A stretch of 64,000 bases of DNA from Candidatus Magasanikiibacteriota bacterium (GTDB taxonomy: Bacteria > Patescibacteriota > Patescibacteriia > Magasanikbacterales > UBA922): contig JBPOIO010000023.1 of assembly GCA_052034405.1 (NCBI GenBank), positions 15,340 through 79,339 on the forward strand, in the 5' to 3' direction. Positions within the stretch are counted from its first letter, which is position 1; each line of letters starts with the position of its first letter. The notes under the pieces were generated by a model that had not been told where the DNA came from, did no database searches, and saw nothing but the letters and a program-made list of their open reading frames with translations. Below, piece after piece: positions 6,171 to 45,216 of the stretch. A program made the translations under genes and the position numbers.

Positions 6171-6176
6171 TATCCT

Positions 6177-7223: not shown

Positions 7224-7227
7224 ACGT

Positions 7228-16409: not shown

Positions 16410-17129
16410 ATGCAAAATAAAACACTCGTCATCATTCCAGGTTGGGGAGGAAGCCACGAAACATGGGCAGATTTTATGAACCTCATGAAGCCCTATTTCA
16501 AAGACGTCGTTTGTATTGATCTCCCTGGATTTGGTGGAGTTGATACTCCCAAAACTGTCTGGGGAGTAGAACAGTACGCTGAATATGTAAGGCGAAAAAT
16601 TGAAAAGTTACCAGAGGGACCAAAAGTTATCATGGGACATTCTTTTGGGGGGCAAGTATCAGCCTACCTCGTCGCCAATAACCCTCAAGTTGCCCAAAAA
16701 TATATTCTTGTAGCCGGAGCTGTTTTTCGTCCATCTCGTCCTATTCGCCGCGCCTTCTTTTTTATTATCGCAAAATTTGGTAAAATACTCTTCAAGATAC
16801 CCGTGATTGAAAATGTTGCTATTTGGGCCAAGAAAATACTCTACAAAACAGCAGACTCGCCAGACTATGCAGCCACAAGCGGCATCAAACGCGACATCTT
16901 CAAAAAGATTATTCGCCAAGACCTCAGCGAGCAGCTTCCAAAAATCACCATAGCAACCCTAATTGTCTGGGGAACACTCGATAGTTATCTTCCTGTCAAA
17001 GACGCATACAGAGCACAAAAATTGATAGCGCATTCCAAACTTGAAATTATTCCTGGTGGTACACACGGATTGCACCTTCACCAAAAACAAAAACTCCTTG
17101 AACTCATTACTAAATTTGTCTATGACTAA
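16410..17129 (+). CDS. Alpha/beta hydrolase fold protein
   Basis: GHSFGG nucleophile elbow. C-terminal HG...H. Confidence 0.7.
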   Translation: MQNKTLVIIPGWGGSHETWADFMNLMKPYFKDVVCIDLPGFGGVDTPKTVWGVEQYAEYVRRKIEKLPEGPKVIMGHSFGGQVSAYLVANNPQVAQKYILVAGAVFRPSRPIRRAFFFIIAKFGKILFKIPVIENVAIWAKKILYKTADSPDYAATSGIKRDIFKKIIRQDLSEQLPKITIATLIVWGTLDSYLPVKDAYRAQKLIAHSKLEIIPGGTHGLHLHQKQKLLELITKFVYD

Positions 17130-18693: not shown

Positions 18694-18696
18694 ATT

Positions 18697-19944
18697 ATGA
18701 ATTTTTTCAAAACTCCAGTTTTTACGGGATTTATGCCAAATCTCCTCGCAAAAGAAGTGCTTCTCGCTCTCTCTTTTATGTTTCCTTGGAATTGGTCAAA
18801 ACTGCAATCGGGGAAAGCGCTCTCTTTACTCGAAAAACAATTCGAAACATTTTTTGGAATAAACTCTGTTATTGCTTTTGATAGTGGCCGTAGTAGCCTC
18901 CAAATTGCCCTAGAAAGCCTTGAAATGTCACAAAACGATGAAGTACTCCTCCAAGCCTATACCTGCTCTGTTGTGTCAAATGCCGTCATTTGGTCTGGGG
19001 CTCGTCCAGTATATGTTGATATAAACAAAAATTTCAACATGGACCCAAGTGATTTGGAGAAAAAAATCACTCCTCGTTCCAAAGTTCTCATTATTCAACA
19101 CACATTTGGAATTCCCGCAGATCTTGAAGCACTTGTAGCCATTGCCCAAAAACATAATCTTACTATCATTGAAGATTGTGCGCATGTCATTGGTGGTATG
19201 TATAAAAATAAAATGCTCGGAACTTGGGGAGATATTGCTATGCTCAGCTTTGGAACAGACAAATCTATTTCCTGTGGTCGAGGTGGAGCTTTGCTTACAA
19301 ATAATACAAATCTAGCAGAAAAATTTCGCAAAAGACAAAAAACACTTCCTCATCTTTCAAAAAAATATATTCTGCAACAACTCTACACTTTTATTCTTTT
19401 TTTTCTTTGCAAAGCACTGTATACTATTGGTATTGGAAAATTTGTACTCGCACTTTCAAAAAAATTGCATCTGAGTAGTCGAATTATTGAACAAAATGAA
19501 AAAAAAGGAAAGCAAAGTCCAAAATTTCCTGCACAATTGGCAAATACATTGGCAGAAATTGCACTTCATCAAATGAAACATTTGAATGAATTTAATGAGC
19601 ACAGAATTGCTCTTGCAGAAAACTATAAAAAAAATATACAAAATTCTCAAATAGAAACCCCAGAAAAAATTCAAAATATTCCATTTTTACGTTTTCCAAT
19701 TTTAGTCAAAAATCCAGCAAAACTTCACAAAATGGCGCAAAAAGAGGGGATACTCCTTGGAGATTGGTATACCACAGTTATTGCACCTTCTGATGTAGAT
19801 GAAAGTAAAATGGGCTATACAAAAGGATCTTGTCCCAATGCAGAAAAACTTGCGCAAAGATCAATAAATCTCCCAACACATATTCATATTTCTCAAAAAA
19901 ATCAAGAAAAAATCATCAAGATTGTAAATTCTTATGCCGAATAA
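18697..19944 (+). CDS. DegT/DnrJ/EryC1/StrS-family PLP-dependent sugar aminotransferase
   Basis: Fold-type I motifs (LLQAYTCSVVSNAVIWSGARPVYVD, AMLSFGTDKSISCGRGGALLTN). Confidence 0.8.
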   Translation: MNFFKTPVFTGFMPNLLAKEVLLALSFMFPWNWSKLQSGKALSLLEKQFETFFGINSVIAFDSGRSSLQIALESLEMSQNDEVLLQAYTCSVVSNAVIWSGARPVYVDINKNFNMDPSDLEKKITPRSKVLIIQHTFGIPADLEALVAIAQKHNLTIIEDCAHVIGGMYKNKMLGTWGDIAMLSFGTDKSISCGRGGALLTNNTNLAEKFRKRQKTLPHLSKKYILQQLYTFILFFLCKALYTIGIGKFVLALSKKLHLSSRIIEQNEKKGKQSPKFPAQLANTLAEIALHQMKHLNEFNEHRIALAENYKKNIQNSQIETPEKIQNIPFLRFPILVKNPAKLHKMAQKEGILLGDWYTTVIAPSDVDESKMGYTKGSCPNAEKLAQRSINLPTHIHISQKNQEKIIKIVNSYAE

Positions 19945-20965
19945 GCTGCGTATTCAAGAGATAGAAAGCCCACAAATTTGGGAATCTTTTGTTCGATCCC
20001 AAAAATCTACAGTTTTTGTACAAGCTCCTCAATATGGAGAATTTTATAAATCTCTTGGTGAAAATTTTTTTATTCTCGGAATTTTAAAAGAAGGGGAGCT
20101 TGTTGGAGGTTCTTTGGTAGTGACAACACATGCACGTCGTGGCAATTTCCTCTATCTTCCCTATGGTCCATTTTTACCAGAACAAAATAGGCAAGAAGCC
20201 CTGCAACTTTTCACAGAACACCTTGAAACATACGCAAAAAAACACAAATATTCTTTTATTCGTGTGAGTCCTTTTCTCGAGGAAAATGCTGAAAACATTG
20301 CTCTTTTCAAACATTGCAAATACCACCCTGCTCCCATGCATGCTCTTGCAGAAACAACATGGATTTTGAATATACAAGCATCCGAAGAAACACTTCTCAA
20401 AAACATGAACAAAAATCATCGTAATTTGATTCGTCGTTGTGAACGTGAAGGAGTTGTGATTACACAATCAACAAACCCAAAAGATCTTGATGGTCTTGAC
20501 GAAATGCTTGAGGTAACAGCACAAAGACATAACTTTACAAAATTTTCAAAAAAATATATTACTTCAGAATTCAAGAGTTTTCTCCCAGATAATACGGTTT
20601 TATTTGAAGCCAGACTTCCAGATGGTCGGCTCGATGGAGCTGCTATTATCATGTTTTATGGTACTATGGCCTGTTATCGTCATAGTGCTTCACTTGGCCT
20701 AGATAACAAGCTTCCAACCTCATATCTTCTTCAATGGAAAGTAATTCAAGAAGCTCAAAAAAGAGGCATGCACTGGTATAATTTTTGGGGTATTGCTCCC
20801 CTTGATGCCCACAAAAAACATCCATTTTTTGGTATTACCCATTTCAAAAAAGGTTTTGGTGGAGAAATACGAAATATTTTGCACTGTCAGGATTTTGTTG
20901 TCAGCAAAAAATATTATCTCAATTGGATTATAGAACAATTTCGAAAACGAAAACGTGGTTTCTAA
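19934..20965 (+). CDS. FemAB/FemX-family aminoacyl-tRNA-dependent peptidoglycan peptidyltransferase
   Basis: GNAT-duplication architecture. Motifs HRNLIRRCEREGV and ...AAIIMFYGTMACYRHSAS. Confidence 0.65.
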   Translation: MPNKLRIQEIESPQIWESFVRSQKSTVFVQAPQYGEFYKSLGENFFILGILKEGELVGGSLVVTTHARRGNFLYLPYGPFLPEQNRQEALQLFTEHLETYAKKHKYSFIRVSPFLEENAENIALFKHCKYHPAPMHALAETTWILNIQASEETLLKNMNKNHRNLIRRCEREGVVITQSTNPKDLDGLDEMLEVTAQRHNFTKFSKKYITSEFKSFLPDNTVLFEARLPDGRLDGAAIIMFYGTMACYRHSASLGLDNKLPTSYLLQWKVIQEAQKRGMHWYNFWGIAPLDAHKKHPFFGITHFKKGFGGEIRNILHCQDFVVSKKYYLNWIIEQFRKRKRGF

Positions 20966-20968
20966 AAT

Positions 20969-26926: not shown

Positions 26927-28987
26927 TTATTTGGATGAATTATTTTTGTCACCTTGTTTGAAACCAAGAAACAAAAAGTGAGCACGATTTTCAAACCAAG
27001 GAGCAATAAATCGAAGCATAACACGAGTCACTGTAATCGCAGTAAACAAACTCACCAAGATACCAAGAGACAATGTTACCGCAAAACCTTTGACAAAACT
27101 TGAACCAAACCACATAAGAAGGACACAGGTAATAAGTGTTGACATGTTTCCATCGCGAATAGAAGACCAAGCACGAATAAATCCTTCTTCAATACCTGTT
27201 TTCAATGATTTACCAAGACGAAGTTCTTCTTTCAAGCGTTCGAAGATCAAAATATTTGCATCAATCGCAATACCAATAGACAGGATAAAACCAGTAATAC
27301 CTGAAAGTGATAGTGTTACTCCAATAAATTTGAATACCGCAAGTGTGAGTACAATGTACAGACCAAGTGAGAATACAGAAAGAAGTCCTGGTAAACGGTA
27401 ATAAAGAACCATGAAGATAAAGATGAGCAGTACTGCGATTTCAGCCGCTCTCAAACTCTTATACAGAGAATCAGCACCAAGACTCGCACCAATACTTTGC
27501 TGAGAAAGAAGTGTTACTGGTACAGGAAGAGCTCCAGCATTGAGACGTTGTGAAAGAAGTTTTGCTTCTGTTACATTGAATCCTCCAGTAATAACAGCTT
27601 GACCACCAGTAATTGCTTGATTCACATTTGGTGAACTAATTACTTCTCCATCAAGGAAAATACCCACAGGTTTTCCAACATTTTTTCGAGTGATTTCTTC
27701 AAAGAGTTTGGCACCTTCTTCATTAAATTGAAGAGATACTTGAATTTCTGAAGTTTGAGGATTTGTTGTAACTTCTGCTTTTTTCAATTGTTTTCCAGAT
27801 AATGCTGTTGTTTTCCAAGCATCAGTTGGTGGAAGTACTTCTTCTTTTGTTTTTTTGTCCAAGAAAATTTTCCAAATTTCGTAATCTTTGGTTACATTTT
27901 CTGCTGTTTTATAAATAATATGATAACCAAATTGTGTTTCTACTGGTCCAACAATTTCTCCAGCCTTGGCAGCAAATAATACATTTTCAAATTCTGAAAT
28001 CATGACTCCTTTTGGGAATGTTCCAAGTTCACCACCTTTTACAGCAGTTGAACGATCTGTTGAGTATTGTTTTGCAAGATCAGAAAAGTTTTTTGCATTT
28101 GCTTGTGCATACACATCTTGTGCAATTTTGAGCGCATCTGCTTTTGTAGATGTTGCAGTACAACCAGGAGCTCCACTAAAACAAATCAAAATATGTTTTG
28201 ATGTTACTTCTACTTCACCAGATTGTTCTTTTCCACGTTTCAAAATATAGTATCCATCTGCTTCGTCAAGAACTTTATCTGTAAGTTGACCTTCTTTGGC
28301 TTTTTCTGCCCAAGGATATGCAATTTGATTATTTTGTGCATATTTTTTTACAAACCCCATATATCCTCCATTGTTTTTTGTTGCTTCATCTTCTGAATAT
28401 TGTTTGGCAACATTTTCAAATGGAGTTTTTTTCTTGAGATCAATAAGTGCAGTATCTGCTTTTGTTTTTTGAGCCGCATTAAAATCTGCAATCATTTTTT
28501 TCTCATCTGCAGTCAAATCACGTGGGACTTCTTTATTTTCTTCTTTAAATTCCAAAATTGGAGTTTCACCAATCAATTTTGTTGCTTCGCTAACATCGGT
28601 TACTCCAGGAAGTTCTACATTAATATGATATTCATTTCCTACTTTACTTGTTTCAATGTTTGGTTCCCCTACTCCAAAACCATTGATACGACGTTCAATA
28701 ACATCGCGGGCACCTTCAACCGCTCCACTACGTTCTGTTTGTGCAAGATTTTCTACATTTGCGTTATAAACAAGATGTACACCACTTTGAAGATCAAGCC
28801 CAAGACGAAATTTTTTCTCTGGAACATGTGGAATACTCATGTGAATTTTTGAGTTGACCTTGTCAACACCACGATTTACTTGTTCTGGAACAACAAAAGA
28901 GAGACTGGCAAGAAAGAGAACGATAACTCCAGCAATTCCCCAACGGATTTGTGAACGAAGGTTAACTTGTGTTTTTTGTGCTTTCAT
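26927..28987 (-). CDS. secD: Protein translocase subunit SecD with parvulin-type PPIase-like insert in periplasmic domain
   Basis: SecD TM core at C-terminus. Periplasmic region has PpiC-like segment (SKHILICF...AKQYSTDRSTAVKGGELGTFPKGVMISEFENVLFAAKAGEIVGPVETQFGYHIIYKT) and a second degenerate copy upstream. Confidence 0.85.
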   Translation of the reverse strand: MKAQKTQVNLRSQIRWGIAGVIVLFLASLSFVVPEQVNRGVDKVNSKIHMSIPHVPEKKFRLGLDLQSGVHLVYNANVENLAQTERSGAVEGARDVIERRINGFGVGEPNIETSKVGNEYHINVELPGVTDVSEATKLIGETPILEFKEENKEVPRDLTADEKKMIADFNAAQKTKADTALIDLKKKTPFENVAKQYSEDEATKNNGGYMGFVKKYAQNNQIAYPWAEKAKEGQLTDKVLDEADGYYILKRGKEQSGEVEVTSKHILICFSGAPGCTATSTKADALKIAQDVYAQANAKNFSDLAKQYSTDRSTAVKGGELGTFPKGVMISEFENVLFAAKAGEIVGPVETQFGYHIIYKTAENVTKDYEIWKIFLDKKTKEEVLPPTDAWKTTALSGKQLKKAEVTTNPQTSEIQVSLQFNEEGAKLFEEITRKNVGKPVGIFLDGEVISSPNVNQAITGGQAVITGGFNVTEAKLLSQRLNAGALPVPVTLLSQQSIGASLGADSLYKSLRAAEIAVLLIFIFMVLYYRLPGLLSVFSLGLYIVLTLAVFKFIGVTLSLSGITGFILSIGIAIDANILIFERLKEELRLGKSLKTGIEEGFIRAWSSIRDGNMSTLITCVLLMWFGSSFVKGFAVTLSLGILVSLFTAITVTRVMLRFIAPWFENRAHFLFLGFKQGDKNNSSK

Positions 28988-32417: not shown

Positions 32418-33353
32418 CTAAATCAATTGAATTTCTTCTTCTATAGATATTCCAAATTTATTGTACACTTTTTCTTTTATTTCATCAATGAGAGTCAAAA
32501 CATCACTCGAACTTGCACTCCCAAGATTTATAATAAAATTTCCATGCGTATCGCTTACTTTTGCATTTCCTACCTGAGCCCCTTTCATACCCGCTTTATC
32601 AATAAGCCATCCTGCAGAAATAATTCCTTTTTGTTTGAATTCTTCAGGTACTTCAAAATTGAGTTTTGCTTGTCCAATTTCAAAATTTTTAAAAATACAA
32701 CCGGTAGATGCAAATCCCTGTGGTTGAGTCTTGCTGCGATATTGCAAAAACTCCAATGCTTTTTTCATGCCGTCTTTGTTTTCGGATTTTTCAAGTTTTA
32801 AATGCACTCGTAGTACCACAGCACCACTGTCTTTGAACATACTATGACGATAGTGAAAATCACACTGCGCATTGCTCAGCATTACCAGCTCACCATCCAT
32901 ATAGGCTTCGATCTTTTCTACATTATTACTCATGTCACTTCCCATAGCTCCTGCGTTTCCTCGAACCGCGCCACCAATAGTACCAGGCACTCCCACGCCC
33001 CATTCAAATCCAATAAAACCTTCTTTCATGGAGAGATTGGCAATGGCAACGGTACTGCATCCAGCATCTGCAATGATCCCAGTATCTGTCACTTCTGTTT
33101 TTTTTGTGTTGATATTGATCACAACACCTGTATATTCACTATCAGAAGCAAGCATATTACTACCACCACCGAGGATAAATCGTTCAATCCCCTCTTCGTC
33201 AAGAAATTTGAGGAGATCTACCAGCTTGTCAGTTTCGTCAACAACAACAAAAAGTTGGACTGGTCCACCAATTTTGAAGGTTGTATGCTTACTCATGGGC
33301 TCATTGAGCTTCACTTTTCCGTAGTTTTTGAGCTTTTTATAAAGTTCCATCAT
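32418..33353 (-). CDS. murB: UDP-N-acetylenolpyruvoylglucosamine reductase
   Basis: FAD-binding domain (TTFKIGGPVQLFVVV, ILGGGSNML) and C-terminal MurB domain. Confidence 0.85.
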   Translation of the reverse strand: MMELYKKLKNYGKVKLNEPMSKHTTFKIGGPVQLFVVVDETDKLVDLLKFLDEEGIERFILGGGSNMLASDSEYTGVVININTKKTEVTDTGIIADAGCSTVAIANLSMKEGFIGFEWGVGVPGTIGGAVRGNAGAMGSDMSNNVEKIEAYMDGELVMLSNAQCDFHYRHSMFKDSGAVVLRVHLKLEKSENKDGMKKALEFLQYRSKTQPQGFASTGCIFKNFEIGQAKLNFEVPEEFKQKGIISAGWLIDKAGMKGAQVGNAKVSDTHGNFIINLGSASSSDVLTLIDEIKEKVYNKFGISIEEEIQLI

Positions 33354-33483: not shown

Positions 33484-34689
33484 ATGCATATGCCAAAAAT
33501 ACTTTTTTACATTACTCGAGATATCGAAAGAGCACTTGGCCTTTCTGTAGATAATGAAGGCTATTTTATTATCTCAAATTCTACCCCCTTTAGCAAGCAA
33601 ATCGCTCTTTTACATCCAAATGTTTTACTTGTTGAAGAAAGCCAACTTCTTGATACCCATGAACTTTTGCAAAAGCAGAGTGTTCAAGATTTTATTACGC
33701 AAAATTCAAATAACATGAAGCCAAATATTTTGGTTTTCAAAAATACTTCTATTATTGAAAAAATTTGTACAGAAAACAATTGGAATCTCCTCAATCCAAG
33801 TGCAAAACTCTCTCAAATGATCGAAGAAAAAATTACACAAGTTGAATGGCTCGGGAGTCTCACAAAATATCTTCCTCCACACAAAATTCAAATTGCCCAT
33901 GATGTTGTGTATGACGGCATGCCATTTATTTTGCAGTTCAATCGTGCACACACGGGACTAGGAACGATGATGATTTCTTCGACTGAACAACTTGCCGAAA
34001 TACAAAATAAATTTCCGGATCGTCCTGTTCGCATCACGCAGTTTATTGATGGTGCCATGCTGACGAGTAACAATGTTGTCTGTCCTGATAAAGTTTTGGT
34101 TGGCAATATCAGCTACCAGATTACCGGTACGCCACCATTTACAGATAATCCATTTACAACTATTGGCAATGATTGGGCCCTTCCACATGTTTTGTTGAAT
34201 GATGAGTTGAAAGCGCAATACCATACGATTGCCACAGAGATTGGAAACAAACTTCGTGAAAGCGGATGGAAAGGACTCTTTGGAATTGACGTTATACTCG
34301 ATACAGCAGAAAATAAATTGTATTTGATCGAAATCAATGCAAGGCAACCAGCAAGTACCACTTACGAAAGTATTTTGCAAGAAAAAAATACAACTTTTGC
34401 TGCACACCTCTCAGCGCTCACAGATACTCCAAGTAACGAATTAACTCAAATCACAACAGGTGCGCAGATTATTGTTCGCAATGGTGAACTCATGCAAGAC
34501 AAAACCCAAGATACGATTATCCAAAACTTAAAAAACCTCAATTTTGATCTGAACATCATCCCCTACACCAATACAGACCCAGGTTCAGATTGGATTCGCA
34601 TTCAGACAACCCAGTCTTTATTTACAGAACATAATAAACTCAACGAACTTGGAGAAAAAATAAAAAAAACTCTTGAAGAGTCTCTATAA
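33484..34689 (+). CDS. ATP-grasp fold ligase (possibly a divergent D-Ala-D-Ala ligase or other peptidoglycan amino-acid ligase)
   Basis: C-terminal ATP-grasp signature GLFGIDVILDTAENKLYLIEINARQPAS, analogous to Ddl RVDFF...YLNEINTMPGFT. Adjacent to murB. N-terminal Ddl motif GGxSxEHEVS absent. Confidence 0.7.
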   Translation: MHMPKILFYITRDIERALGLSVDNEGYFIISNSTPFSKQIALLHPNVLLVEESQLLDTHELLQKQSVQDFITQNSNNMKPNILVFKNTSIIEKICTENNWNLLNPSAKLSQMIEEKITQVEWLGSLTKYLPPHKIQIAHDVVYDGMPFILQFNRAHTGLGTMMISSTEQLAEIQNKFPDRPVRITQFIDGAMLTSNNVVCPDKVLVGNISYQITGTPPFTDNPFTTIGNDWALPHVLLNDELKAQYHTIATEIGNKLRESGWKGLFGIDVILDTAENKLYLIEINARQPASTTYESILQEKNTTFAAHLSALTDTPSNELTQITTGAQIIVRNGELMQDKTQDTIIQNLKNLNFDLNIIPYTNTDPGSDWIRIQTTQSLFTEHNKLNELGEKIKKTLEESL

Positions 34690-34828: not shown

Positions 34829-34865
34829 GCCCATATATAATCACAACACAGCATAATTGTCAACT

Positions 34866-35660
34866 ATGAACAACAAAACTCTCTCACAACCCGCACTCGA
34901 TATTATCAAAAATTATTCTCAGCTTGTCTTTGGCGACAAAAAAATAAACTGCCCCTACTTCAACAACCGCCGCAGCAAAGTTCGCGCAGGGTTGCGGGTA
35001 ATGATTGGAAAAGGCAACCCAGAAGAAATTATTGACGAAGCAAATCTTTTTGCACTCCGAGAAAAAATTGATCTCAAAAATTTATCAAGCGAGGCAATAA
35101 AACAATTTCTCGTTGATCACAATCTTGGACTTGATTGTTCTGCCTTTGCCTATTATATTTTGGCAGCAGAATACGCAAGCAAGACAAAAAATAAACTTTC
35201 TTCCAAGATATTTTATCCAAATATTGGACTTTTGCGAAAACTTCTCACCAAACTTCGCCCTGTAGAAAATATTGGGGTCAAAACTTTGGCACAGGAAAAA
35301 AACTCACATCTTGTTTCGCTCTCTGACACTGCTCCGGGAGACTTTGTAAGTATTTTAAATTCAGGAAAAGAACACAACCTCAATCATATCCTCGTCATTT
35401 ACAAAGTTGAATACGAAGAAAACCAGCCAAAAACATTGTACTATGTACATTCTTTTCAATGGTCCACAGATGGAAAATATAATCATGGAATAAAAACAGG
35501 GCGCATTGAAATTACTGATACGAAAAAAACACTGCTCGAGCAAAAATGGATTGAATCCGAAAAAACAGCTGAACAAAATGAAACTTACCTCCGAGCAAGT
35601 GATGCCGAAGTACTCGAACTCAAACGACTGAATGTATTATTAACAAAAAATCCTGCTTGA
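34866..35660 (+). CDS. Hypothetical protein (265 aa)
   Basis: ORF track 34857 (TTG) with first ATG at 34866. Followed by a terminator. Confidence 0.5.
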   Translation: MNNKTLSQPALDIIKNYSQLVFGDKKINCPYFNNRRSKVRAGLRVMIGKGNPEEIIDEANLFALREKIDLKNLSSEAIKQFLVDHNLGLDCSAFAYYILAAEYASKTKNKLSSKIFYPNIGLLRKLLTKLRPVENIGVKTLAQEKNSHLVSLSDTAPGDFVSILNSGKEHNLNHILVIYKVEYEENQPKTLYYVHSFQWSTDGKYNHGIKTGRIEITDTKKTLLEQKWIESEKTAEQNETYLRASDAEVLELKRLNVLLTKNPA

Positions 35661-35680
35661 GTGCAGGTTTTTTTATTTTT
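35645..35680 (+). terminator. Intrinsic terminator
   Basis: CCTGC (35652-35656) pairs with GCAGG (35663-35667). Then TTTTTTT (35668-35674). Overlaps the stop codon. Confidence 0.55.
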
Positions 35681-35777
35681 CTTCTAAATACCTCCGAGGA
35701 GATTTTCAAAAGGAAGGTCCGCGCGAAGTGCACGGAAGGATGGCGGCCCAATATCCGCCAGAATAGGGTTGTTTCGC

Positions 35778-36197
35778 CTAGAGCTTGCGCAGCTCGGCGA
35801 GGACGACCCACATATTCGAGACGTAGAGGTAGTAGCGCTGGAACAGATCGCTCGTGGCGGTCGGGATTCGTTCAAAATCCCCAGTCGCCAGATCTGCGGG
35901 CTCATTGCTGTAGCCCATTTCACGGAGGCAGCGCATCACCTCGGCAATGACCGACTGAATCCGCTGGTACTTCACGCCCATCGGATCAGCGTTCTTCACC
36001 CAGTTGAGCAGCAGCCCACGGATGGCCGAGAGGTGTTCCGCCTCCGAGTCATCACGATCCGCGCCAAAAACCTCTCGCAGTCGAAGTCCGTACATGACGG
36101 AAAAACTCCTGGCCCCGTCTGGGACAGGGCGAACTTGGTGTGGCTTTTGGCCACCATGGCCGCCAGCCTTTGTCGTTCCAGGACAATGGGGCACCAA
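35778..36197 (-). CDS. Hypothetical protein on a high-GC island (probable horizontally acquired gene)
   Basis: Region 35700-36230 is ~60% GC. Minus-frame codon third positions are strongly GC-biased (over 70%), whereas the antisense plus ORF 35769..36326 is not. Possible internal start at MYGLRL... Confidence 0.45.
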   Translation of the reverse strand: MVPHCPGTTKAGGHGGQKPHQVRPVPDGARSFSVMYGLRLREVFGADRDDSEAEHLSAIRGLLLNWVKNADPMGVKYQRIQSVIAEVMRCLREMGYSNEPADLATGDFERIPTATSDLFQRYYLYVSNMWVVLAELRKL

Positions 36198-36334
36198 TTA
36201 AACGAACGAGCACCAAATAAGGAGTTTATTATATTTTTAAAATTTATATGTGGACGAATGGAACGACCCACAAATCTACCACAATTCCTCTCCCTTGTCA
36301 ATCCCCACATTCTCTGCTATACTTGAAGAAAAAT

Positions 36335-37465
36335 ATGCCTATTTCAGCAGAATCTATCTCTCTTCTTCGAGAAGCCATTTTATTTGGTCTTGTTTCTTGT
36401 TTTTCAGCATTTCTATGGGCACCAGCACTCACCAAGATCCTCTACAAATACAAAATCGTCCGCAACAACCCCTACGACCCAACCCTCGCTATGGAAGGAC
36501 GCAAAGACAAATCTGGCATCCCTATTATGGGAGGCCTTTTGATTATCATCACCGTTGCAGTCATTACTATGCTCTTCAACTGGGAGCGCAAATTTACTTG
36601 GGTACCAATCTCGGTCATGCTCCTCGCGGCACTGCTCGGTGGCGTTGACGACGTACTCAATATCTATGGTGAAAAACGCCGCAATCGTGACCTCAAACAT
36701 ACCCTGCGTCTCATCCGCATTCACAAAAATATTTTTACCCGCATCTGGCTGACTCTCACACTGCCATGGGCCCTGTTCAAACGCACTTCCCTTTGGCTGG
36801 GTTCACATCCTGGCAAAGGTATGCAGGTTCATGAACGACTACTCCTCCAATTTGTCGCAGGCGCTATCACAGCATGGTGGGTCTACTTCAAGCTTGGTGA
36901 ACACTGGAGAGAAATTCATATTCCATTTGATGGCTTTCTCAATATTGGCTGGTGGATTATTCCGCTCATCATTTTCTTTGTCATGTTTACCGCCAATGCA
37001 GTGAACATCGCAGATGGTATGGATGGTCTTGCAGGAGGATCTCTGATCACCACTTTTTCTGCTCTCACAATTCTTTCTTGGATTGCAGGGTACCACGAGA
37101 TTACACTGCTCAATGCTACGGTTGTTGGGGCACTTATTACCTATACCTATTTCAATATCAAACCAGCGCGTTTTCAAATGGGCGACGTTGGCTCACTTGG
37201 CATGGGCGCACTGCTTGCGATCAATGCTATTGTGATAAATCACATGCTCCTCTTGCCGCTTCTTGGTTTTATTTTTTATGTAGAAATTTTGAGCGTGATA
37301 GTCCAAATCTTTGGCCGCACTTTTCTCGGGAAGCGTATTTTCAAAATGGCGCCACTCCACCACCACTTTGAACTCATGGGTTGGGGCGAAGAAAAAACTG
37401 TCATGCGTTTTTGGATTATTCATGCAGCGTTTGTACTGCTTGGTATTTGGGTTGCCTTGTACTAA
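36335..37465 (+). CDS. mraY: Phospho-N-acetylmuramoyl-pentapeptide transferase
   Basis: NAVNIADGMDGLAGG, MGDVGSLGMGALLA, KMAPLHHHFE. ATG at 36335 (ORF track start 36248 lies in the GC island). Confidence 0.9.
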   Translation: MPISAESISLLREAILFGLVSCFSAFLWAPALTKILYKYKIVRNNPYDPTLAMEGRKDKSGIPIMGGLLIIITVAVITMLFNWERKFTWVPISVMLLAALLGGVDDVLNIYGEKRRNRDLKHTLRLIRIHKNIFTRIWLTLTLPWALFKRTSLWLGSHPGKGMQVHERLLLQFVAGAITAWWVYFKLGEHWREIHIPFDGFLNIGWWIIPLIIFFVMFTANAVNIADGMDGLAGGSLITTFSALTILSWIAGYHEITLLNATVVGALITYTYFNIKPARFQMGDVGSLGMGALLAINAIVINHMLLLPLLGFIFYVEILSVIVQIFGRTFLGKRIFKMAPLHHHFELMGWGEEKTVMRFWIIHAAFVLLGIWVALY

Positions 37466-37476
37466 ACAAAAATAGT

Positions 37477-38178
37477 ATGAAAGAATATCTGAAATGGGAT
37501 GAACAAATAATTACAGACTTCTCAGACGAAAACATCAATAACCTTTATGACAAAGGTTATGTTTTTACTCGAAAAGAAAAAGGCCTGATGCATCAAACCC
37601 GCAGTGTCCGAATAAATCTCTCCAAATTTGACCTCAGTAGCGAAAATCGCCGCATTTTGCGAAAAACCGAAAATATTCAAATGGGCATCATCCCACTTCC
37701 CTTTCCAGATTATCATTGGAGTATTGGTAAACTTGCCAAAGATTTTTATGATACAAAATTTGGTGACGGGACATTTAGTGCAAACAAAGTCAAAGAATTG
37801 TTGACTGACAGAAATAAAAGCAACTTTACTTCGCTTTTTGTTTATTTTTCTGTAGCAATTCCAAAAGACCCAACAGCACCTATTGCAGTTGATCCTGAAA
37901 ATATTTTTGGATATTGCATTGCCATTGAAACAAACAAGATTCTCCATTATTCTTATCCTTTTTATGATCTTGAAACCGCTCCAAAAGACATGGGAATGGG
38001 TATGATGACCCGTGCCATTCAATCTGCCAAAGCAAGTGACAAAAAATATATCTACCTTGGTAGTGCACAGCGCCCAAACGATACCTACAAATTTCAATTT
38101 GAAGGTATTGAGTGGTTTGATGGTGAAAAGTGGCAGACTGATTTTGAAGAGTTGAAAAGTATTTTACAAAAAATATGA
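37477..38178 (+). CDS. Aminoacyl-tRNA--protein transferase family protein (ATE1/Bpt-like, GNAT fold)
   Basis: C-terminal YIYLGSAQRPNDTYKFQFEGIEW resembles the ATE_C/Bpt motif YLGYWI...KM.YK..F.P.E. N-terminal region is ATE_N-like. Start at internal ATG 37477. Confidence 0.5.
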   Translation: MKEYLKWDEQIITDFSDENINNLYDKGYVFTRKEKGLMHQTRSVRINLSKFDLSSENRRILRKTENIQMGIIPLPFPDYHWSIGKLAKDFYDTKFGDGTFSANKVKELLTDRNKSNFTSLFVYFSVAIPKDPTAPIAVDPENIFGYCIAIETNKILHYSYPFYDLETAPKDMGMGMMTRAIQSAKASDKKYIYLGSAQRPNDTYKFQFEGIEWFDGEKWQTDFEELKSILQKI

Positions 38179-38618
38179 AGGAAAAAGAATACCTTACAAA
38201 AGAAATAATAATCCAAAATATTTTGGCAAAATCTTCGTATTTTCCCCAAAATAAAGAAAAAAAAGAAAATTATCCTGAAAAAGGTTACATTTTATTTGAG
38301 TATGGCACAAAAGTATTAGAATTAGGTTATGAATTCGACTCAAATGGTATTGTCGCTGTCACTTTTATAAAATCCAAAAATGATGAAAATGAACATAAAC
38401 CAGAAGAAACAACCCTTCTATATGAGGCAGCAAAACAGACTATGCAAAAACTATCAAACAATTTTAAAAGACTCCTTCATTATCAAATGATAACCGCTGA
38501 CAAAAAAATGCTTGCGTGGGCACAAACGACAGGGAGAAACTTATTTCATTGGGAAAGTGAAGAACACACAGAAACGGAAGCCCAAAGGTTTTCTGTTACC
38601 ATTTATCCAAATTTATAA
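38175..38618 (+). CDS. Hypothetical protein, tandem paralog A
   Basis: 147 aa. Shares clear similarity with the next ORF (LYEAAKQTMQKL...WAQTTGRNLFHWESEE vs LYKAAKILLQRV...WAQSQGNEIFDWDSME). Confidence 0.5.
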   Translation: MKEKEYLTKEIIIQNILAKSSYFPQNKEKKENYPEKGYILFEYGTKVLELGYEFDSNGIVAVTFIKSKNDENEHKPEETTLLYEAAKQTMQKLSNNFKRLLHYQMITADKKMLAWAQTTGRNLFHWESEEHTETEAQRFSVTIYPNL

Positions 38619-38659
38619 AATACTTTTTTCTTTTCCAAACATAAACAAAATTTACCTTT

Positions 38660-39079
38660 ATGAATTCAGAAAACGAAAGATACACCTCCATTTCTCAAAA
38701 TATTCTTGCAGAGGTAAAAGAAAAAAAACAACACAATACAGAATACATCCTTAAATTTGGGGGAAGACGTCTTACTCTTTTGATCATAGAAAGTCAAAAA
38801 GAGATTATGGACTATCTTGAAAATACCAGCGATACTCCAGAAATAGGCTCTACTACAGAACTCTACAAGGCAGCAAAAATTTTACTCCAAAGAGTCGTCA
38901 ACACAAGACGAGAAAGCCTCAAATATGTTATGAGAACCAAAAGTTCTTCAATCCGTGAGTGGGCCCAAAGTCAAGGAAATGAAATTTTTGACTGGGATAG
39001 TATGGAAATAGACGAGCGTCGAGGTGCTGACTCTCTTTTTTACAAAACATTTAGCCCTGAAAATAACGACACTGTATGA
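38660..39079 (+). CDS. Hypothetical protein, tandem paralog B
   Basis: 139 aa. Paralog of 38175..38618. Confidence 0.5.
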   Translation: MNSENERYTSISQNILAEVKEKKQHNTEYILKFGGRRLTLLIIESQKEIMDYLENTSDTPEIGSTTELYKAAKILLQRVVNTRRESLKYVMRTKSSSIREWAQSQGNEIFDWDSMEIDERRGADSLFYKTFSPENNDTV

Positions 39080-40464
39080 AACACATTCACTTCATCGGCA
39101 TTTGCGGAGTCGCCATGAGCGCACTTGCCATTGCTTTCAGCAAAAAAGGCTATACCGTCACTGGAAGTGATGCGGGTTTTTATCCTCCGGTTTCCACCAA
39201 TCTTCTCGCACACAAAATTCCTTTTTATCCTGGCTGGCATGTAGACAAAATGACCAAAAACGGTGTCCCAGATCTTGTCATAGTTGGAAATGTTGCTAGT
39301 TCAAGCAACCCAGAATGGCTCTATGTTCAAGAACAAAAAATCCCCTACCTCTCATATCCAGAAGCAATCGCCGAATATTTTCTTGGAAAAAATTCTATTG
39401 TCTGCGCTGGAACCTATGGCAAAACTACCAGTTCAACTTTGCTTGCTTGGATCCTGCGCAATGCCAAGTTTGACCCAAGCTATATGTTTGGTGGCGTGCC
39501 TGTCAACGAATTTGATTCTGCGTCAATATCTGATGCCCGTGAATATAGCGTGCTTGAAGGAGACGAATACAAAACTTCAGGCTGGGACAATCGTCCAAAA
39601 TTTGCACTCTATGCGCCAACACATTTGCTTCTCACCAGTGTGAGCTGGGATCATGCGGATGTGTATCCAACAGAGCAAAGTTATTTTGATGCATTCAAAA
39701 CACTGGTTGCGACTATCCCAAAAACAGGCCTGCTTGTTGCATGTACCGAAGGAAAAAACATAGATCTTGTTTTGCCTTCTTGCAAATCACAAATTGTTTT
39801 TTATGGCAAAGCCAAACATGCAGACTACATGTATCGCGACGTACAACAAACCGAAAAAGGCCTCTACTTTGATATCCTCAACAAAAAAGAAGTCTACCAT
39901 ATAAAAACTTCAATTCTTGGTGAATACAATGTTGAAAATATGGTTGGATGTTTTGCCATGGCCCGTGAAATTGGCATTGATGCAAAAACAATTCTCGAGA
40001 GTTTTGCATCTTTTCGTGGTATCAAACGCCGTCTTGAAAAACGCCTCACTGGACCAATCACGGTGATCGACGATATTGCACATTCCCCTGCCAAAGCGGC
40101 GTCACTTCTCGAAACTCTTCGCAAAACATACAAAGGAAAAATCATTGCTGTTTTTGAACCAAATACTGGGAACCGTCAACAAGAAGCAATTCCACAATAC
40201 GATCAGGCTTTCAAATACGCCGATACCGTCGTTATTCCACGCCTCACCAAGCTCAAAATCGATCCAAATGATACAGAAAGCCCCCTTGAAGGACAGGATT
40301 TACGAGATGTGATTCATACAACACATAAAGATGTTGAATATATTGAACAAGACGAAACCCTCGTCAAATATCTTATCCAAAATAGCAAAAAAGGCGATGT
40401 TATTGCCTTTCTTGGTTCACATGGATTTCGTGGTATGATTGAAGAAACTATAAAACAACTTTAA
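39076..40464 (+). CDS. MurC/Mpl-family UDP-N-acetylmuramate--amino acid/peptide ligase
   Basis: HFIGICGVAMSALA N-terminus. GTYGKTTSSTLLAWIL P-loop. EGDEYKTSGWDNRPKF...WDHADVY resembles the Mpl/MurC EADEYD...FDHADIF block. Confidence 0.8.
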   Translation: MKHIHFIGICGVAMSALAIAFSKKGYTVTGSDAGFYPPVSTNLLAHKIPFYPGWHVDKMTKNGVPDLVIVGNVASSSNPEWLYVQEQKIPYLSYPEAIAEYFLGKNSIVCAGTYGKTTSSTLLAWILRNAKFDPSYMFGGVPVNEFDSASISDAREYSVLEGDEYKTSGWDNRPKFALYAPTHLLLTSVSWDHADVYPTEQSYFDAFKTLVATIPKTGLLVACTEGKNIDLVLPSCKSQIVFYGKAKHADYMYRDVQQTEKGLYFDILNKKEVYHIKTSILGEYNVENMVGCFAMAREIGIDAKTILESFASFRGIKRRLEKRLTGPITVIDDIAHSPAKAASLLETLRKTYKGKIIAVFEPNTGNRQQEAIPQYDQAFKYADTVVIPRLTKLKIDPNDTESPLEGQDLRDVIHTTHKDVEYIEQDETLVKYLIQNSKKGDVIAFLGSHGFRGMIEETIKQL

Positions 40465-40468
40465 CTCT

Positions 40469-41107
40469 ATGCTTAATATTCCACCAGGTCTTGCCCTTGA
40501 TATTGATGATACACTTTGTCACACACTTATACATCTTTTAGATCAGCTTCAAAAAAACTTTGGCAGTCCAGAAAATCTCACAGCAGCAGAACTTGTAAAC
40601 AAATATTCACATACTTCAAAAATCCCTTACTGGAATGAACCAGAACATCACACATGGAAACTCGCACTCCTTGAAACAGATGAACTCTACGAAAATTTAG
40701 ATATTATTGAAAATGCAAATTATATCATACAAAAAATTGAAGCAGTAATACCAATATCTTGTTATATTACTGCACGACCAGAAGGTACAACAGCAGTAAG
40801 TAAACGCTGGCTCAAAAAATATAACTTTCCTGAACGAGAAGTCATTAGTAAACCAAACTCAGTAGCATACGAAGACGGCAACAAATGGAAAGCCCAACTC
40901 CTCACACAATACCATCCTCAATTGCTCGGGATTGTAGACGATAATCCTGGAATAATTTCAGCGCTTCCCGAAAATTACAAAGGGACTGTATTTTTGTACA
41001 GTCACCTTGAATACACAGGTCCAACACCAATCAACGTCATCCCCTGCAAAGATTGGGATACTGTCTACAACAAAATTATTTCCCTTCGTCCACAATCTCA
41101 GCCATAA
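40469..41107 (+). CDS. HAD-superfamily hydrolase (5'(3')-nucleotidase-like)
   Basis: LALDIDDTL (DxDxT motif I). About 212 aa. Confidence 0.6.
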   Translation: MLNIPPGLALDIDDTLCHTLIHLLDQLQKNFGSPENLTAAELVNKYSHTSKIPYWNEPEHHTWKLALLETDELYENLDIIENANYIIQKIEAVIPISCYITARPEGTTAVSKRWLKKYNFPEREVISKPNSVAYEDGNKWKAQLLTQYHPQLLGIVDDNPGIISALPENYKGTVFLYSHLEYTGPTPINVIPCKDWDTVYNKIISLRPQSQP

Positions 41108-41298: not shown

Positions 41299-42180
41299 AT
41301 GAAAACACCACAAAAACCCTACGGAGAATTGGCAAAAAAAATGGGCCTCACTGAGCTCTGGTTCAAACGTGAAGACCTGCACCCATATGGCTCCCACAAA
41401 GGTCGATCGATTCCACAGATGATCAAAGAATACGCCAAACTTGGAAGCACGCAATTTGTGATTTCTTCTTCTGGAAACGCAGCGCTCGCGGCTATTATTG
41501 CTGTCCAAAAACACAATCAAAATAACCCAACACATGTGAATCTTACTGTGTACGTTGGACAACACATTGATGCAGAAAAATTGACCCGTCTCAAAAAAGA
41601 AATTACAGATACTTCTATTACAATCGAACAAGTTGAAAATCCAAAACAAATGGCTTTTCAAAAAGATAAAAGTGCAGAAGCCAAGAATCTTCGCCAATCC
41701 ACTGATGACCTCGCCCTTCGCGGATATGCCGAACTCGCAGACGACCTCTCCAAAATTCCAAATCTCGAGGCAGTTTTTATCCCTACTTCTTCTGGTACCA
41801 CTGCCCAAGCACTTGGCGAGGCATTCCAAAAAATGAATCTTCCTATTCAAATACACATTGTGCAAACTACAACAACCCACCCAATCGCAGAAGCATTCGA
41901 TACAACATTTACTCACAGCGACGAAACATCTCTCGCTGGCGCGATCGTTGACAAGATTGCTCACAGAAAAGACAAAGTTGTGGAAGCAATAAAAAACACC
42001 CATGGTTCTGGGTGGGTTATAACAAATACTGAAATTGAAAACGCAATGAATTTGGTCAAAGAAAATACTGATTTTACACTTTCATCAAACAGCGCACTGT
42101 CTCTCGCAGGCCTTCTCAAAGCGCAAAAAAATGACTGGAAATGGACCGGTCCGGTCGCCTGCCTAATTACTGGTAGATAA
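41299..42180 (+). CDS. PLP-dependent enzyme, fold type II (Trp-synthase-beta/Thr-synthase/Cys-synthase superfamily)
   Basis: HPYGSHKGRS resembles the PALP lysine motif (PTGSFKDRG). Gly-rich IPTSSGTTAQALG loop. Confidence 0.65.
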   Translation: MKTPQKPYGELAKKMGLTELWFKREDLHPYGSHKGRSIPQMIKEYAKLGSTQFVISSSGNAALAAIIAVQKHNQNNPTHVNLTVYVGQHIDAEKLTRLKKEITDTSITIEQVENPKQMAFQKDKSAEAKNLRQSTDDLALRGYAELADDLSKIPNLEAVFIPTSSGTTAQALGEAFQKMNLPIQIHIVQTTTTHPIAEAFDTTFTHSDETSLAGAIVDKIAHRKDKVVEAIKNTHGSGWVITNTEIENAMNLVKENTDFTLSSNSALSLAGLLKAQKNDWKWTGPVACLITGR

Positions 42181-42844: not shown

Positions 42845-43539
42845 AGATGTGCGATAGTAATAATATTTTCTCCATTCGCTTTATCCGAGCGATTTTCTTT
42901 TTTTGTATAATACTGTTCGTCCACTACAAATCCAGCACCTGTAAACAAAGAATCCAGCTCTTCCAGAGTAAATCCATGATAATAGCGCTCACCCAAAATA
43001 GAACCTTCTGCATCTCTCCATGGCACCAAAAAATCTCCATTTCCAAGGTCCTGATATTTTCCGAGTCGTACTTGCTTCAATCCCCATTCTCCAAACAAAT
43101 TCCAATTGGATAAAATTACTTTTCCATCAGGCTTCAAAACTCGTTTCATTTCTTCGAGGGCTTTATTTTGAAAATCCAGTCCAGGAATATGCTGCAGTGC
43201 AGCGATACAAAAAATCACATCCACACTTTTATCTTCCAAAGGAATGGCCGTCATAGTTCCTTGTATAAAAGTCCCCTCACGAAACTGTTTTCGGGCCAAA
43301 ACCAATAATTCTTCACTTTGGTCTACCCCAATATAGGATATTGGCAAATCCGTAAATATCTGGTATAATCGTCCATTACCACAGCCAAGGTCAAGTACCA
43401 CGTCATTTTCTTTGACAAAAGCATGAAAAGGCTTGAGCTCTTGCCACACATACTGACGAGTATCGGAAAAGTGTTTGGCTATGGTATTATATACCTGTAA
43501 ATTTTGTTCAATAAGTTGGCCCGCAACAAGTTTATCCAT
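42841..43539 (-). CDS. Class I SAM-dependent methyltransferase
   Basis: VLDLGCGNGR motif I. Start at 43539 or 43575 (ORF track). Confidence 0.7.
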   Translation of the reverse strand: MDKLVAGQLIEQNLQVYNTIAKHFSDTRQYVWQELKPFHAFVKENDVVLDLGCGNGRLYQIFTDLPISYIGVDQSEELLVLARKQFREGTFIQGTMTAIPLEDKSVDVIFCIAALQHIPGLDFQNKALEEMKRVLKPDGKVILSNWNLFGEWGLKQVRLGKYQDLGNGDFLVPWRDAEGSILGERYYHGFTLEELDSLFTGAGFVVDEQYYTKKENRSDKANGENIITIAHL

Positions 43540-45216
43540 ATGGATACAGTTCAGATAGAAGAAATGATGATACAAATTTTAGAAAAAAAGCCCTCTACAA
43601 AAGACGAGCTCAATTTTTGGCGGACAAAAATGGCAAGTGAATTCAAGACCAACCAGCCACCCACTCGCCTTCTTCTCGTAGCATATCAGAATTTACTCAA
43701 AAAGAAAAGAATCAAACGCCACAAAGATTTTGAAAAGCTCCTCACCAAAGCAGATATTCGCAGTAGCTCGGGAATTTCTGTTATTACGACACTTCTGAAA
43801 CCCTATACCTGCCCAGGAAAATGCATCTATTGTCCAACAGAAGTCCGTATGCCAAAAAGTTATTTGGCAAGCGAACCAGCAGCCGCACGATCTCTGGCCC
43901 TCAACTTCAACCCCTACAAGCTCATGCAATTGCGTATAGAGATGCTCGAGCGCAATGGCCATTCTACAGACAAAATTGAATATATCACCAAAGGTGGAAC
44001 CTGGAATGCCTATCCACTCAAATACCAATACTGGTTTATTTTGGAATCCTTCAAAGCCTGCAATAATTTTTCTCGCCGAAAACAAATTCCAGAAAGCGAA
44101 GAATCTGACTGGAATGATCGACCACTTGAAGAACTCCAAAAAGCACTCGACATTGAAATCAAATACAATGAAAAATGCGCGCATCGTATTATTGGACTTA
44201 CCCTCGAAACACGACCAGACGCCATCTCGCCAAAAACTATTTACCACATGCGCCGCCAAGGTTGCACCCGTGTAGAACTTGGTCTGCAAGCACCTGACGA
44301 TAAAATTCTCGAACTCATCAAACGTGGTCATACAGTAGAGCAATTTCGCAAAGCGATTTATTTGCTTCGCCAGGCTGGATTCAAAGTCGACCTTCACTTT
44401 ATGCCAGATCTCCCAGGAACTACCCCAGAGCACGATGTAGAAATGTACAAACTGCTTTTTAGCGACCTAGGCCTTCGACCTGACATGGTCAAAATTTATC
44501 CAAATGCAGTCATCCCCTCTGCCGAACTCTACCAATGGTTTCTTGATGGACGCTTCAAACCATATGGCGAAGAAGCACTCTTCAAATCCCTTCTCGAAAT
44601 GAAACTTGCGACTCCTCGCTACTGCCGCATATCACGCCTCATTCGCGACATTCCAGCAAACGAAATTGAAGGTGGAAACAAAATCACCAACCTGCGTGAA
44701 ATGCTCGAGACAGAACTCAAAAAACGCGGGCGACACTGCGTCTGTTTGCGTTGCCGTGAAATCTCTCGCCAAAAAGACAATATTCCTCTTGAAACAGAAC
44801 CCACACTTTTTGCGGATGAGTATGATACTATTGGTGGAAAAGAATATTTCATTACACTCGAAGACCCAAAACGCGTAGCCGTATTTGGATTTTTGCGTCT
44901 TCGTATCCCCGACCAAGCAAACAAAATTGATACGATTCAAAAACAGTTTGATAGCTATCTCCCAGAACTCAAAGACTGCGCATTTGTCCGCGAACTTCAC
45001 GTTTACGGAACATTGGTTGGAATCGGCAAACGAAATGTTGATGCCAGTCAGCATAAAGGATATGGAAAAAGACTTATGGCAGCAGCAGAAAAGATTGCCG
45101 CAGAAAATGGATACGGCAAAGTCGCTGTTATTTCTGGAGTTGGCGTGCGTGGATATTACCGCAAACTTGGCTACAAACTTCGAGGTACTTATATGATAAA
45201 AAACCTCTTTATATAG
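43540..45216 (+). CDS. elp3: Elp3-family radical-SAM plus GNAT protein (tRNA uridine-34 modification enzyme homolog)
   Basis: Radical SAM CPGKCIYC (Cx3Cx2C). Central Elp3-like region. C-terminal GNAT (GYGKRLMAAAEKIAAENGYGKVAVISGVGVRGYY). Start at 43540 or 43504. Confidence 0.8.
   Translation: MDTVQIEEMMIQILEKKPSTKDELNFWRTKMASEFKTNQPPTRLLLVAYQNLLKKKRIKRHKDFEKLLTKADIRSSSGISVITTLLKPYTCPGKCIYCPTEVRMPKSYLASEPAAARSLALNFNPYKLMQLRIEMLERNGHSTDKIEYITKGGTWNAYPLKYQYWFILESFKACNNFSRRKQIPESEESDWNDRPLEELQKALDIEIKYNEKCAHRIIGLTLETRPDAISPKTIYHMRRQGCTRVELGLQAPDDKILELIKRGHTVEQFRKAIYLLRQAGFKVDLHFMPDLPGTTPEHDVEMYKLLFSDLGLRPDMVKIYPNAVIPSAELYQWFLDGRFKPYGEEALFKSLLEMKLATPRYCRISRLIRDIPANEIEGGNKITNLREMLETELKKRGRHCVCLRCREISRQKDNIPLETEPTLFADEYDTIGGKEYFITLEDPKRVAVFGFLRLRIPDQANKIDTIQKQFDSYLPELKDCAFVRELHVYGTLVGIGKRNVDASQHKGYGKRLMAAAEKIAAENGYGKVAVISGVGVRGYYRKLGYKLRGTYMIKNLFI

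Follow-up and report, generated by a model that had tools for sequence, protein, structure and literature searches.

Enzymes of the ATE1/Bpt type are known only as N-degron modifiers of protein N-termini. In klAte1, the catalytic lysine is K304, equivalent to K305 of FemX; the metal site of the ATE_N domain is formed by four cysteines (C23, C26, C95 and C96), and R80, the second arginine of the GWRRSG motif, is a basic pocket residue recognising the acidic N-terminal residue (PMC9351520). Among chimeric Mur proteins, MurC-Ddl, MurG-MurC, MurC-MurB and MurE-MurF have been surveyed, and a fusion of a transferase to an Mpl-type ligase is not catalogued there (PMC10214165). Here we analyse a 64,000-nucleotide stretch of a Candidatus Magasanikiibacteriota genome (contig JBPOIO010000023.1; the whole stretch is termed the window), which encodes a 233-residue homologue of the ATE/Bpt transferases between mraY and a Mur ligase gene. 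With a probability of about 0.55, we propose that this protein is a catalytically active transferase that depends on aminoacyl-tRNA and serves specifically in the peptidoglycan-precursor pathway, where an amine on the stem peptide, or on a precursor, would receive a small or hydrophobic amino acid.

Family and fold of the 233-residue protein

A preliminary description of the locus had called the protein ATE/Bpt-like and had placed it between mraY and a Mur ligase gene, followed by two small proteins in tandem; all of these open reading frames (ORFs) are present, and the likeness to ATE/Bpt holds up. The C-terminal end of the protein carries KKYIYLGSAQRPNDTYKFQFEGIEWFDG (ORF 37477-38178). The Pfam ATE_C model (PF04377) matches residues 140-212 with 21.1 bits (E 5e-4), below the gathering score of 25, and a precomputed PF04377 match is found in about one third of the listed homologues, indicating that the family straddles the threshold. 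Seven NCBIfam arginyltransferase models also match (E 5e-11 to 3e-3), every one far under its cut-off, the best being NF002341, whose 42.8 bits compare with an equivalog cut-off of 252. A Pfam scan detected neither ATE_N (PF04376) nor FemAB (PF02388) in the protein, which consists of a single GNAT-like domain.

An AlphaFold (AF2) model, built with the family alignment, reached a predicted local distance difference test score (pLDDT) of 92.9 and a predicted TM-score (pTM) of 0.89. When this model was compared with the PDB by Foldseek, the top match was human ATE1 (8tzv; E 1.9e-8, query TM-score (TMq) 0.69), and the next strongest matches were almost all aminoacyl-tRNA transferases: L-PGS/MprF, K. 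lactis and yeast ATE1, FemX, Sba18/Sbb17 and L/F-transferase. The strongest matches span E-values from 1.9e-8 to about 1e-4, which places the predicted fold in the GNAT-like aminoacyl-tRNA transferase superfamily. Profile-profile alignment by hhalign to genuine Pseudomonas Bpt proteins, selected as carrying both PF04376 and PF04377, yielded a probability of 77.7% (E 1.9e-5), with residues 43-221 pairing with Bpt 69-233. Taken together, these comparisons suggest a separate subfamily without the cysteines, which would operate in the manner of ATE/Bpt transferases but does not fit several of the formal definitions of that family.

The family is large, with 1785 clusters at 90% identity (E <= 1e-3) whose listed members are 55-88% identical, and a scan of one genome per species recovered relatives in at least 404 genomes. 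No match was obtained by tblastn against plasmids. Homologues are publicly annotated as hypothetical, or automatically named arginyl- or leucyl-tRNA protein transferase by Joint Genome Institute (JGI) pipelines, and full-text literature searches returned no description of the family, its cell-wall context or its ligase fusions. Among the records of L001-L080, as we number the related loci, many metagenome-assembled genomes with this typically Patescibacterial cluster are titled 'uncultured Gammaproteobacteria', and one homologue each is labelled Kapabacteria and Arenimonas; these labels look unreliable. In L046 (9647-11062), the ATE-like ORF runs on into an extra C-terminal region of about 120 residues (ILDGLHRLVKAYILG), which could represent a real fusion or a lost stop codon; the long ORF of L040 is an artefact from a run of N.

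Catalytic residues and binding pockets

An alignment of 30 diverse members has 47 invariant columns, including Y204, K205 and R59, and R58 is conserved in at least 90%. In the hhalign alignment, K205 pairs with Bpt K217, the counterpart of klAte1 K304 and FemX K305. The FYD motif is likewise retained (HYSYPFYD, compared to AVYTFYDP in Bpt). Residues 55-63, SENRRILRK (R58-R59-I-L-R62-K63), are invariant or nearly so and pair with NRQQRRILKR of Bpt; this basic helix is predicted, from the alignment, to bind tRNA.

The equivalents of the donor side-chain pocket are Y158, M176, A180 and I192, at positions that are Ser/Ser/Glu/Tyr in ATE1 and Ala/Ala/Gln/Leu in Bpt. Because of this Tyr/Met/Ala/Ile composition, the predicted pocket argues against arginine as donor and for a small or hydrophobic amino acid. 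No cysteine is invariant in the 30-sequence alignment and the four-cysteine metal site is missing, so neither a zinc nor an iron-sulphur site is expected. On the acceptor side, the GFRRSG motif reads GYVFTR by hand alignment only, which would put an invariant F30 at the R80 position, as the region lies outside the hhalign alignment; R32, R42 and R45, also invariant, are found nearby.

Conserved neighbourhood and ligase fusions

Synteny was assessed in the best 80 of the 404 related loci, the counts referring to those with enough flanking sequence. The relatives maintain a constant order of murB (on the minus strand), an ATP-grasp gene, an NlpC/P60-like gene, mraY, the ATE-like gene, the Mur ligase gene and a gene for a PALP enzyme. 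Directly 5' of the transferase lies mraY in 72 of 73 loci, and a Mur ligase is present on the 3' side in all 62, with the PALP gene further 3' (45/45); the upstream ATP-grasp and NlpC-like genes are found in 48/52 and 43/52 loci, respectively. Transferase and ligase are separated by no more than 110 bp in 41 of 65 loci, and overlaps of -4 bp occur in many. Mean identity to the window proteins is 67.8% for MraY, 58.6% for the transferase and 54.9% for the ligase, a conservation of the transferase similar to that of the genes beside it.

In two loci the transferase and the ligase are fused in frame. The L007 protein (5620-7761, 713 residues) has a direct junction, LKNILKTNKHIHFIGICG, and that of L058 (386-2443, 685 residues) is joined through the linker KKSVDNSQ; the two fusions come from independent genomes and differ in their junctions.

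In the two closest relatives, L089 and L091, a small Cys-rich membrane or secreted protein is encoded between mraY and the transferase (L089 5687-5992, 101 residues; L091 5566-5994, 142 residues), while the window instead has a gap of just 11 nt between the two genes.

The adjacent ligase is of the Mpl type in sequence

The gene downstream of the transferase had been named murC/mpl; the assignment as a Mur ligase stands, and in sequence the protein is clearly of the Mpl rather than the MurC type. It aligns over its full length with E. coli Mpl (210 bits, 31% identity), compared to 125 bits and 27% for E. coli MurC, and shares with Mpl a 7-residue insertion without counterpart in MurC. The Mpl motifs GICG, TGSDAxxYPPxST, the DEY...D.R.KF insertion, DDxAHxP, EPxxxN and GSHGFRG are all present, and the best PDB sequence matches are 3hn7 and 3eag, both of which are Mpl structures (PMC3060825). 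The pattern is general, as the transferase-adjacent ligase scores higher on Mpl than on MurC in 72 of 72 loci. The window ligase falls under both curated cut-offs (TIGR01081 mpl, 250.8 against 388.7 bits; TIGR01082 murC, 270.1 against 335.1), with the murC model slightly ahead of the mpl model, and the protein may be the organism's MurC-type enzyme.

In nine loci (L038, L062, L067, L068, L071, L074, L076, L077 and L080), the opposite strand encodes a divergent MurD-like ligase at a distance of 3-6 kb past the end of the cluster; its best model is murD TIGR01087, at 122-146 bits against a cut-off of 212. We also considered the transferase as a replacement of MurD, an idea weakened by the presence of this gene near the transferase in the nine loci.

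Small paralogs in a variable slot

The two small proteins that follow the transferase in the window, here B1 and B2, had been described as paralogous, and they are indeed 35% identical over 124 residues (BLASTP, E 1e-11). A HMMER search assigned 433 representative clusters to their family, 235 of them at E <= 1e-10, with listed members of 82-211 residues and one exception of 376. The family has no match in Pfam, NCBIfam or PHROG; sequence similarity to a canonical GNAT from the equivalent slot was absent (hhalign 0.1%), and so was the acetyl-CoA motif A (Q/R-x-x-G-x-G/A), a conserved ETTxLYxAAK segment being present without G-x-G. By predicted fold, B1 and B2 are divergent GNAT-fold proteins.

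Members of the family sit at the transferase-ligase junction in the window and in L022, L031, L066, L082, L084 and L089; by count, they occupy this position in just 3 of the 65 loci fetched via the transferase and in 3 of 4 close-relative contigs chosen deliberately. They also occur at unrelated loci (L081, L083 and L085/L086). The nearest relative, whose transferase is 88% identical, lacks B1 and has a single copy, orthologous to B2 at 65% identity; in the relative after it, the slot is taken by a membrane protein of no relation to the family. Elsewhere the junction is occupied by S-adenosylmethionine (SAM) methyltransferases, a cyanophycin-synthetase-like ATP-grasp protein, a RimK-like glutamate ligase, a RimI-like GNAT protein and several unannotated proteins. 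The junction is thus a variable slot that often holds small-molecule or peptide-tailoring enzymes. Since the slot varies and the family is seldom found there and also appears at unrelated loci, B1 and B2 are accessory, not core or required partners, and the suggestion that they serve as substrates, immunity partners or specificity factors finds no support.

Other origins of the pair were considered. A recent tandem duplication was rejected, as B1 and B2 share 35% identity compared to 65% between B2 and its orthologue in the nearest relative lacking B1, and a phage or defence connection was rejected for want of a significant PHROG match. The C-terminal motif WA..kG..IF.WDs resembles W..KGRKIYEWDSQ of the colicin E3 RNase over some 30 residues; with an E-value of 0.69 and a predicted fold that is GNAT-like and not colicin-like, the resemblance was treated as chance.

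Proposed role and alternatives

Because the order of mraY, transferase and ligase is conserved and two ligase fusions exist, the transferase most likely takes part in the synthesis of peptidoglycan precursors. The preliminary description had suggested tRNA-dependent modification of the stem peptide; with that order in essentially every evaluable locus, a tRNA-dependent role in peptidoglycan-peptide chemistry is indeed the best reading, and most likely charged tRNA is used for building or decorating the cell-wall peptide rather than for degradation tagging. We also count in favour of this role that enzymes occupying the slot elsewhere (ATP-grasp, RimK-like, RimI-like GNAT and methyltransferases) modify amino acids or peptides. 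The fold, the conserved catalytic features, the synteny, the fusions and the ligase type were read directly from the data, and from them we infer activity, acceptor and donor.

In the mechanism that we propose, a GNAT-like aminoacyl-tRNA transferase of the ATE1/Bpt branch would have been recruited in Patescibacteria to a permanent place in the cytoplasmic pathway for peptidoglycan precursors. The transferase would be co-transcribed and translationally coupled with mraY and the Mpl-type ligase, and probably associates physically with the latter. The RRILRK helix would bind the acceptor stem of the charged tRNA, Lys205 would stabilise the tetrahedral intermediate, and a free amine on the stem peptide or on its precursor would take up the aminoacyl group. 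As acceptor we consider likeliest the diamino acid at position 3, through its side-chain amine, or a branch residue added beforehand, in a Fem-like step; less likely, it would be the alpha-amine of an N-terminal acidic residue on a free peptide, which the Mpl-type ligase would then load onto UDP-MurNAc. B1 and B2 would be accessory GNAT-fold occupants of the variable 'tailoring' slot.

Several observations weigh against a dedicated cell-wall transferase. To our knowledge, the closest characterised relatives, ATE1 and Bpt, act on protein N-termini and not on peptidoglycan, and a FemX-family enzyme is already present in the genome, hence a second branch-adding enzyme is not strictly needed. Conserved clusters of the dcw (division and cell wall) type include mraZ and rsmH, which perform no cell-wall chemistry, so that synteny alone is no proof. 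The transferase is below the Pfam and NCBIfam cut-offs, and its residues 1-42, the region of the acceptor pocket, could not be aligned to Bpt by hhalign. When the family alignment was used as a profile against PDB sequences, neither ATE1 nor Bpt was recovered and only a marginal GNAT match appeared, making the fold search necessary. Finally, Mur chimeras often unite enzymes of non-consecutive steps (PMC10214165), and what the fusions indicate is thus that the two enzymes have a pathway or complex in common, which need not extend to the substrate.

An unlikely alternative, although the most probable of those considered, is that the protein is a genuine Bpt-type enzyme and a mere operon passenger, adding leucine or another residue to N-terminal Asp or Glu for degradation of the ClpS/ClpAP type, or modifying N-termini otherwise. 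Bpt and ATE1 are after all its closest relatives in sequence and structure, the JGI pipelines name the homologues accordingly, and unrelated housekeeping genes do occur in dcw clusters. Against this, the protein lacks ATE_N and all four metal-binding cysteines, the essential acid-binding arginine would be an invariant phenylalanine according to the hand alignment (GFRRSG to GYVFTR), the best arginyltransferase score stays far from the equivalog cut-off, and no ClpS-like gene is found among the annotated genes of the 64-kb window; the two Mur ligase fusions and the 4-bp overlaps with the ligase also count against it. The same fusions and tight coupling, together with the lost metal site, would suit a protein that has kept the fold alone and serves, without catalytic activity, as a scaffold or regulatory subunit in a complex of Mur ligase and MraY. 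This we consider very unlikely, as the catalytic Tyr-Lys pair, the basic helix and the HYxYPFYD motif vary little or not at all across the family, the pattern expected of an active enzyme.

It is also conceivable, with low probability, that the stem peptide is built off the nucleotide, through a tRNA-dependent and partly nucleotide-independent route to the core precursor. The transferase would then attach tRNA-derived L-Ala (or Gly/Ser) to the alpha-amine of D-Glu in free gamma-D-Glu-X, supplied by the neighbouring ATP-grasp enzyme or by host salvage, or make a different backbone bond in a peptide that is free or salvaged, and the Mpl-type ligase would load the product onto UDP-MurNAc, replacing, bypassing or paralleling MurC and MurD. 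The Mpl character of the ligase throughout the 72 loci, with its Mpl-specific motifs, fits such a scheme, as do the cytoplasmic NlpC/P60-like protein and the ATP-grasp enzyme conserved in the cluster and the position of the transferase in the place of murD after mraY of classical dcw clusters (L005 reads ftsI, HAD, murF, mraY, transferase, ligase); furthermore, it is on the amine of N-terminal acidic residues that ATE/Bpt enzymes carry out their acylation (PMC9351520). On the other hand, the arginine for the acidic residue is perhaps lost, and the MurD-like gene in nine loci implies that a MurD step, and hence a MurC-like activity, probably exists. We rate as similarly improbable the aminoacylation of an amine or hydroxyl outside peptidoglycan, either on a membrane lipid as by MprF or on an amino sugar of another envelope polymer. 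The best structural matches do include L-PGS/MprF domains, and a DegT aminotransferase adjoins femX elsewhere in the window, but the transferase has no membrane domain and is conserved alongside MraY and a UDP-MurNAc ligase rather than with genes of lipid synthesis.

If a cell-wall role is correct, it would represent a second independent recruitment of aminoacyl-tRNA transferases into cell-wall synthesis besides the Fem family, and an undescribed chemical feature of the cell wall of Patescibacteria, organisms that are largely uncultured and host-dependent. The evolutionary link between arginyltransferases and Fem enzymes, earlier proposed from sequence, would become directly testable. The size of the family and its almost invariant key motifs suggest that the transferase is probably important for Patescibacteria cells, and the chance that a new step in cell-wall synthesis is at hand is modest but real.

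Locus architecture and other features of the window

The genes of the cluster are collected in Table 1. Only 11 nt separate mraY and the transferase and 41 nt separate B1 and B2, and stop and start codons overlap as ATGA at 38175 and 39076. Judged from spacing and a consensus-like promoter, mraY, the transferase, B1, B2, the ligase and the HAD gene are a probable single transcription unit; the predicted promoter and the upstream hairpin bracket this mraY-led unit. The true start of mraY is likely the ATG at 36335, giving 376 residues, the same length as the L089 orthologue, with the promoter-like site just 5' of it. Rfam and tRNA scans of the 64-kb window gave nothing relevant, and exact look-ups of three of its proteins returned no record. 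Judged by composition and by the genes present, the window fits a genome of Patescibacteria (CPR) near Magasanikbacteria.

Table 1. Positions of the cluster genes, signals and related features discussed here (window coordinates unless a locus is given)
Feature	Position	Strand	Basis or remark
FemAB-family transferase	19934..20965	+	PF02388 E 2e-35; unit of murF, DegT aminotransferase, femX-like, ftsQ-like
murB, divergent from the cluster	32418..33353	-	position kept in relatives
ATP-grasp ligase of unassigned specificity	33484..34689	+	Pfam/NCBIfam; conserved upstream member
Cytoplasmic NlpC/P60-like protein, GLDCSAF Cys motif	34857..35660	+	weak PF00877 match; conserved upstream member
Bidirectional terminator-like hairpin, end of the upstream ATP-grasp/NlpC-like unit	35652..35667	.	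predicted
mraY	36248..37465	+	TIGR00445 E 3e-56
Sigma-70-like promoter TTGTCA-17-TATACT with TG, 5' of mraY	36295..36323	+	match to consensus only
ATE/Bpt-like transferase homologue, 233 residues	37477..38178	+	weak Pfam/NCBIfam matches, AF2, Foldseek, hhalign
B1, small paralog, 147 residues	38175..38618	+	predicted divergent GNAT-fold protein, accessory
B2, small paralog, 139 residues	38660..39079	+	B1 family; the nearest relative has a 65%-identical orthologue at the equivalent position
Mpl-type Mur ligase (UDP-MurNAc:amino acid or peptide ligase)	39076..40464	+	three Mur ligase domains
HAD-like hydrolase	40469..41107	+	weak Pfam matches; 4 nt past the ligase
Pyridoxal phosphate (PLP)-dependent fold-type II enzyme (PALP; Thr synthase/Ser-Thr dehydratase-like)	41299..42180	+	PF00291 E 1e-29; NCBIfam
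MurD-like ligase, example	L080 13236-14552	-	TIGR01087

A 500-bp island (35700-36200) separates the terminator that follows the NlpC-like gene from the promoter of mraY; its GC content is 57-61%, compared to 36-39% elsewhere in the genome. Its minus-strand ORF (35778-36197, 139 residues) is followed by a terminator-like hairpin (35736-35718), has no Pfam, NCBIfam, PDB or Rfam match and shows no DNA or translated similarity in loci L001-L086; it is probably an orphan gene gained horizontally.

The FemXAB-family protein noted previously in the window is confirmed, and it belongs to a second cell-wall unit (17041-21925) of a murF-like gene, a DegT/EryC1-type aminotransferase, the FemAB-family transferase and an FtsQ-like POTRA protein. 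The murF-like gene (17041-18693, 550 residues) has a divergent N-terminal region of about 195 residues, and an amino-sugar aminotransferase between murF and femX is unusual. In SecD, on the minus strand (26927-28987), the N-terminal P1 segment is separated from the P1 head by a peptidyl-prolyl isomerase (rotamase) domain of the PpiC type (residues ~248-362), an uncommon combination. A Ham1/ITPase and a NUDIX domain are fused in a protein of 343 residues (13757-14788). Finally, an Elp3-like protein (43504-45216) combines radical SAM, Radical_SAM_C and GNAT domains as a bacterial homologue of the tRNA-modifying Elp3 family, with orthologues at an unchanged position in L089 and L091.

Comparison with known systems

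ATE1 is the best PDB match of the transferase, and the protein resembles Bpt in size (233 and 235 residues) and in sequence homology over about 165 residues, sharing the catalytic Tyr-Lys, the FYD motif and the basic RRIL(K/R) helix. It differs in the absence of ATE_N and the four cysteines, in GYVFTR for GFRRSG as read by hand alignment and in the Tyr/Met/Ala/Ile donor pocket, as well as in a context of peptidoglycan operon and Mur ligase fusions in place of an N-degron setting. With FemX, FemAB and MurM (PF02388) it has the superfamily and the logic of the catalytic lysine in common, and the proposed transfer from aminoacyl-tRNA to a peptidoglycan-precursor amine would be of the same kind; FemX of W. 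viridescens likewise acts in the cytoplasm on UDP-MurNAc-peptide. These enzymes, however, comprise two domains and ~335-430 residues, whereas the transferase has one GNAT-like domain and no PF02388 match; its TMq is about 0.51 for FemX compared to 0.69 for ATE1, and the true FemAB protein of the window is a separate gene.

As in the Mur chimeras (PMC10214165), some lineages have a pathway enzyme and a MurC-type ligase in one fused protein and others encode the two in adjacent genes, but the fused partner is here a putative tRNA-dependent transferase and not an ATP-dependent or sugar-handling enzyme. The ligase shares 31% identity and motifs with E. coli Mpl, which serves Gram-negative cell-wall recycling, yet it scores below the TIGR01081 cut-off, and its gene belongs to a biosynthetic cluster that includes mraY and murB.

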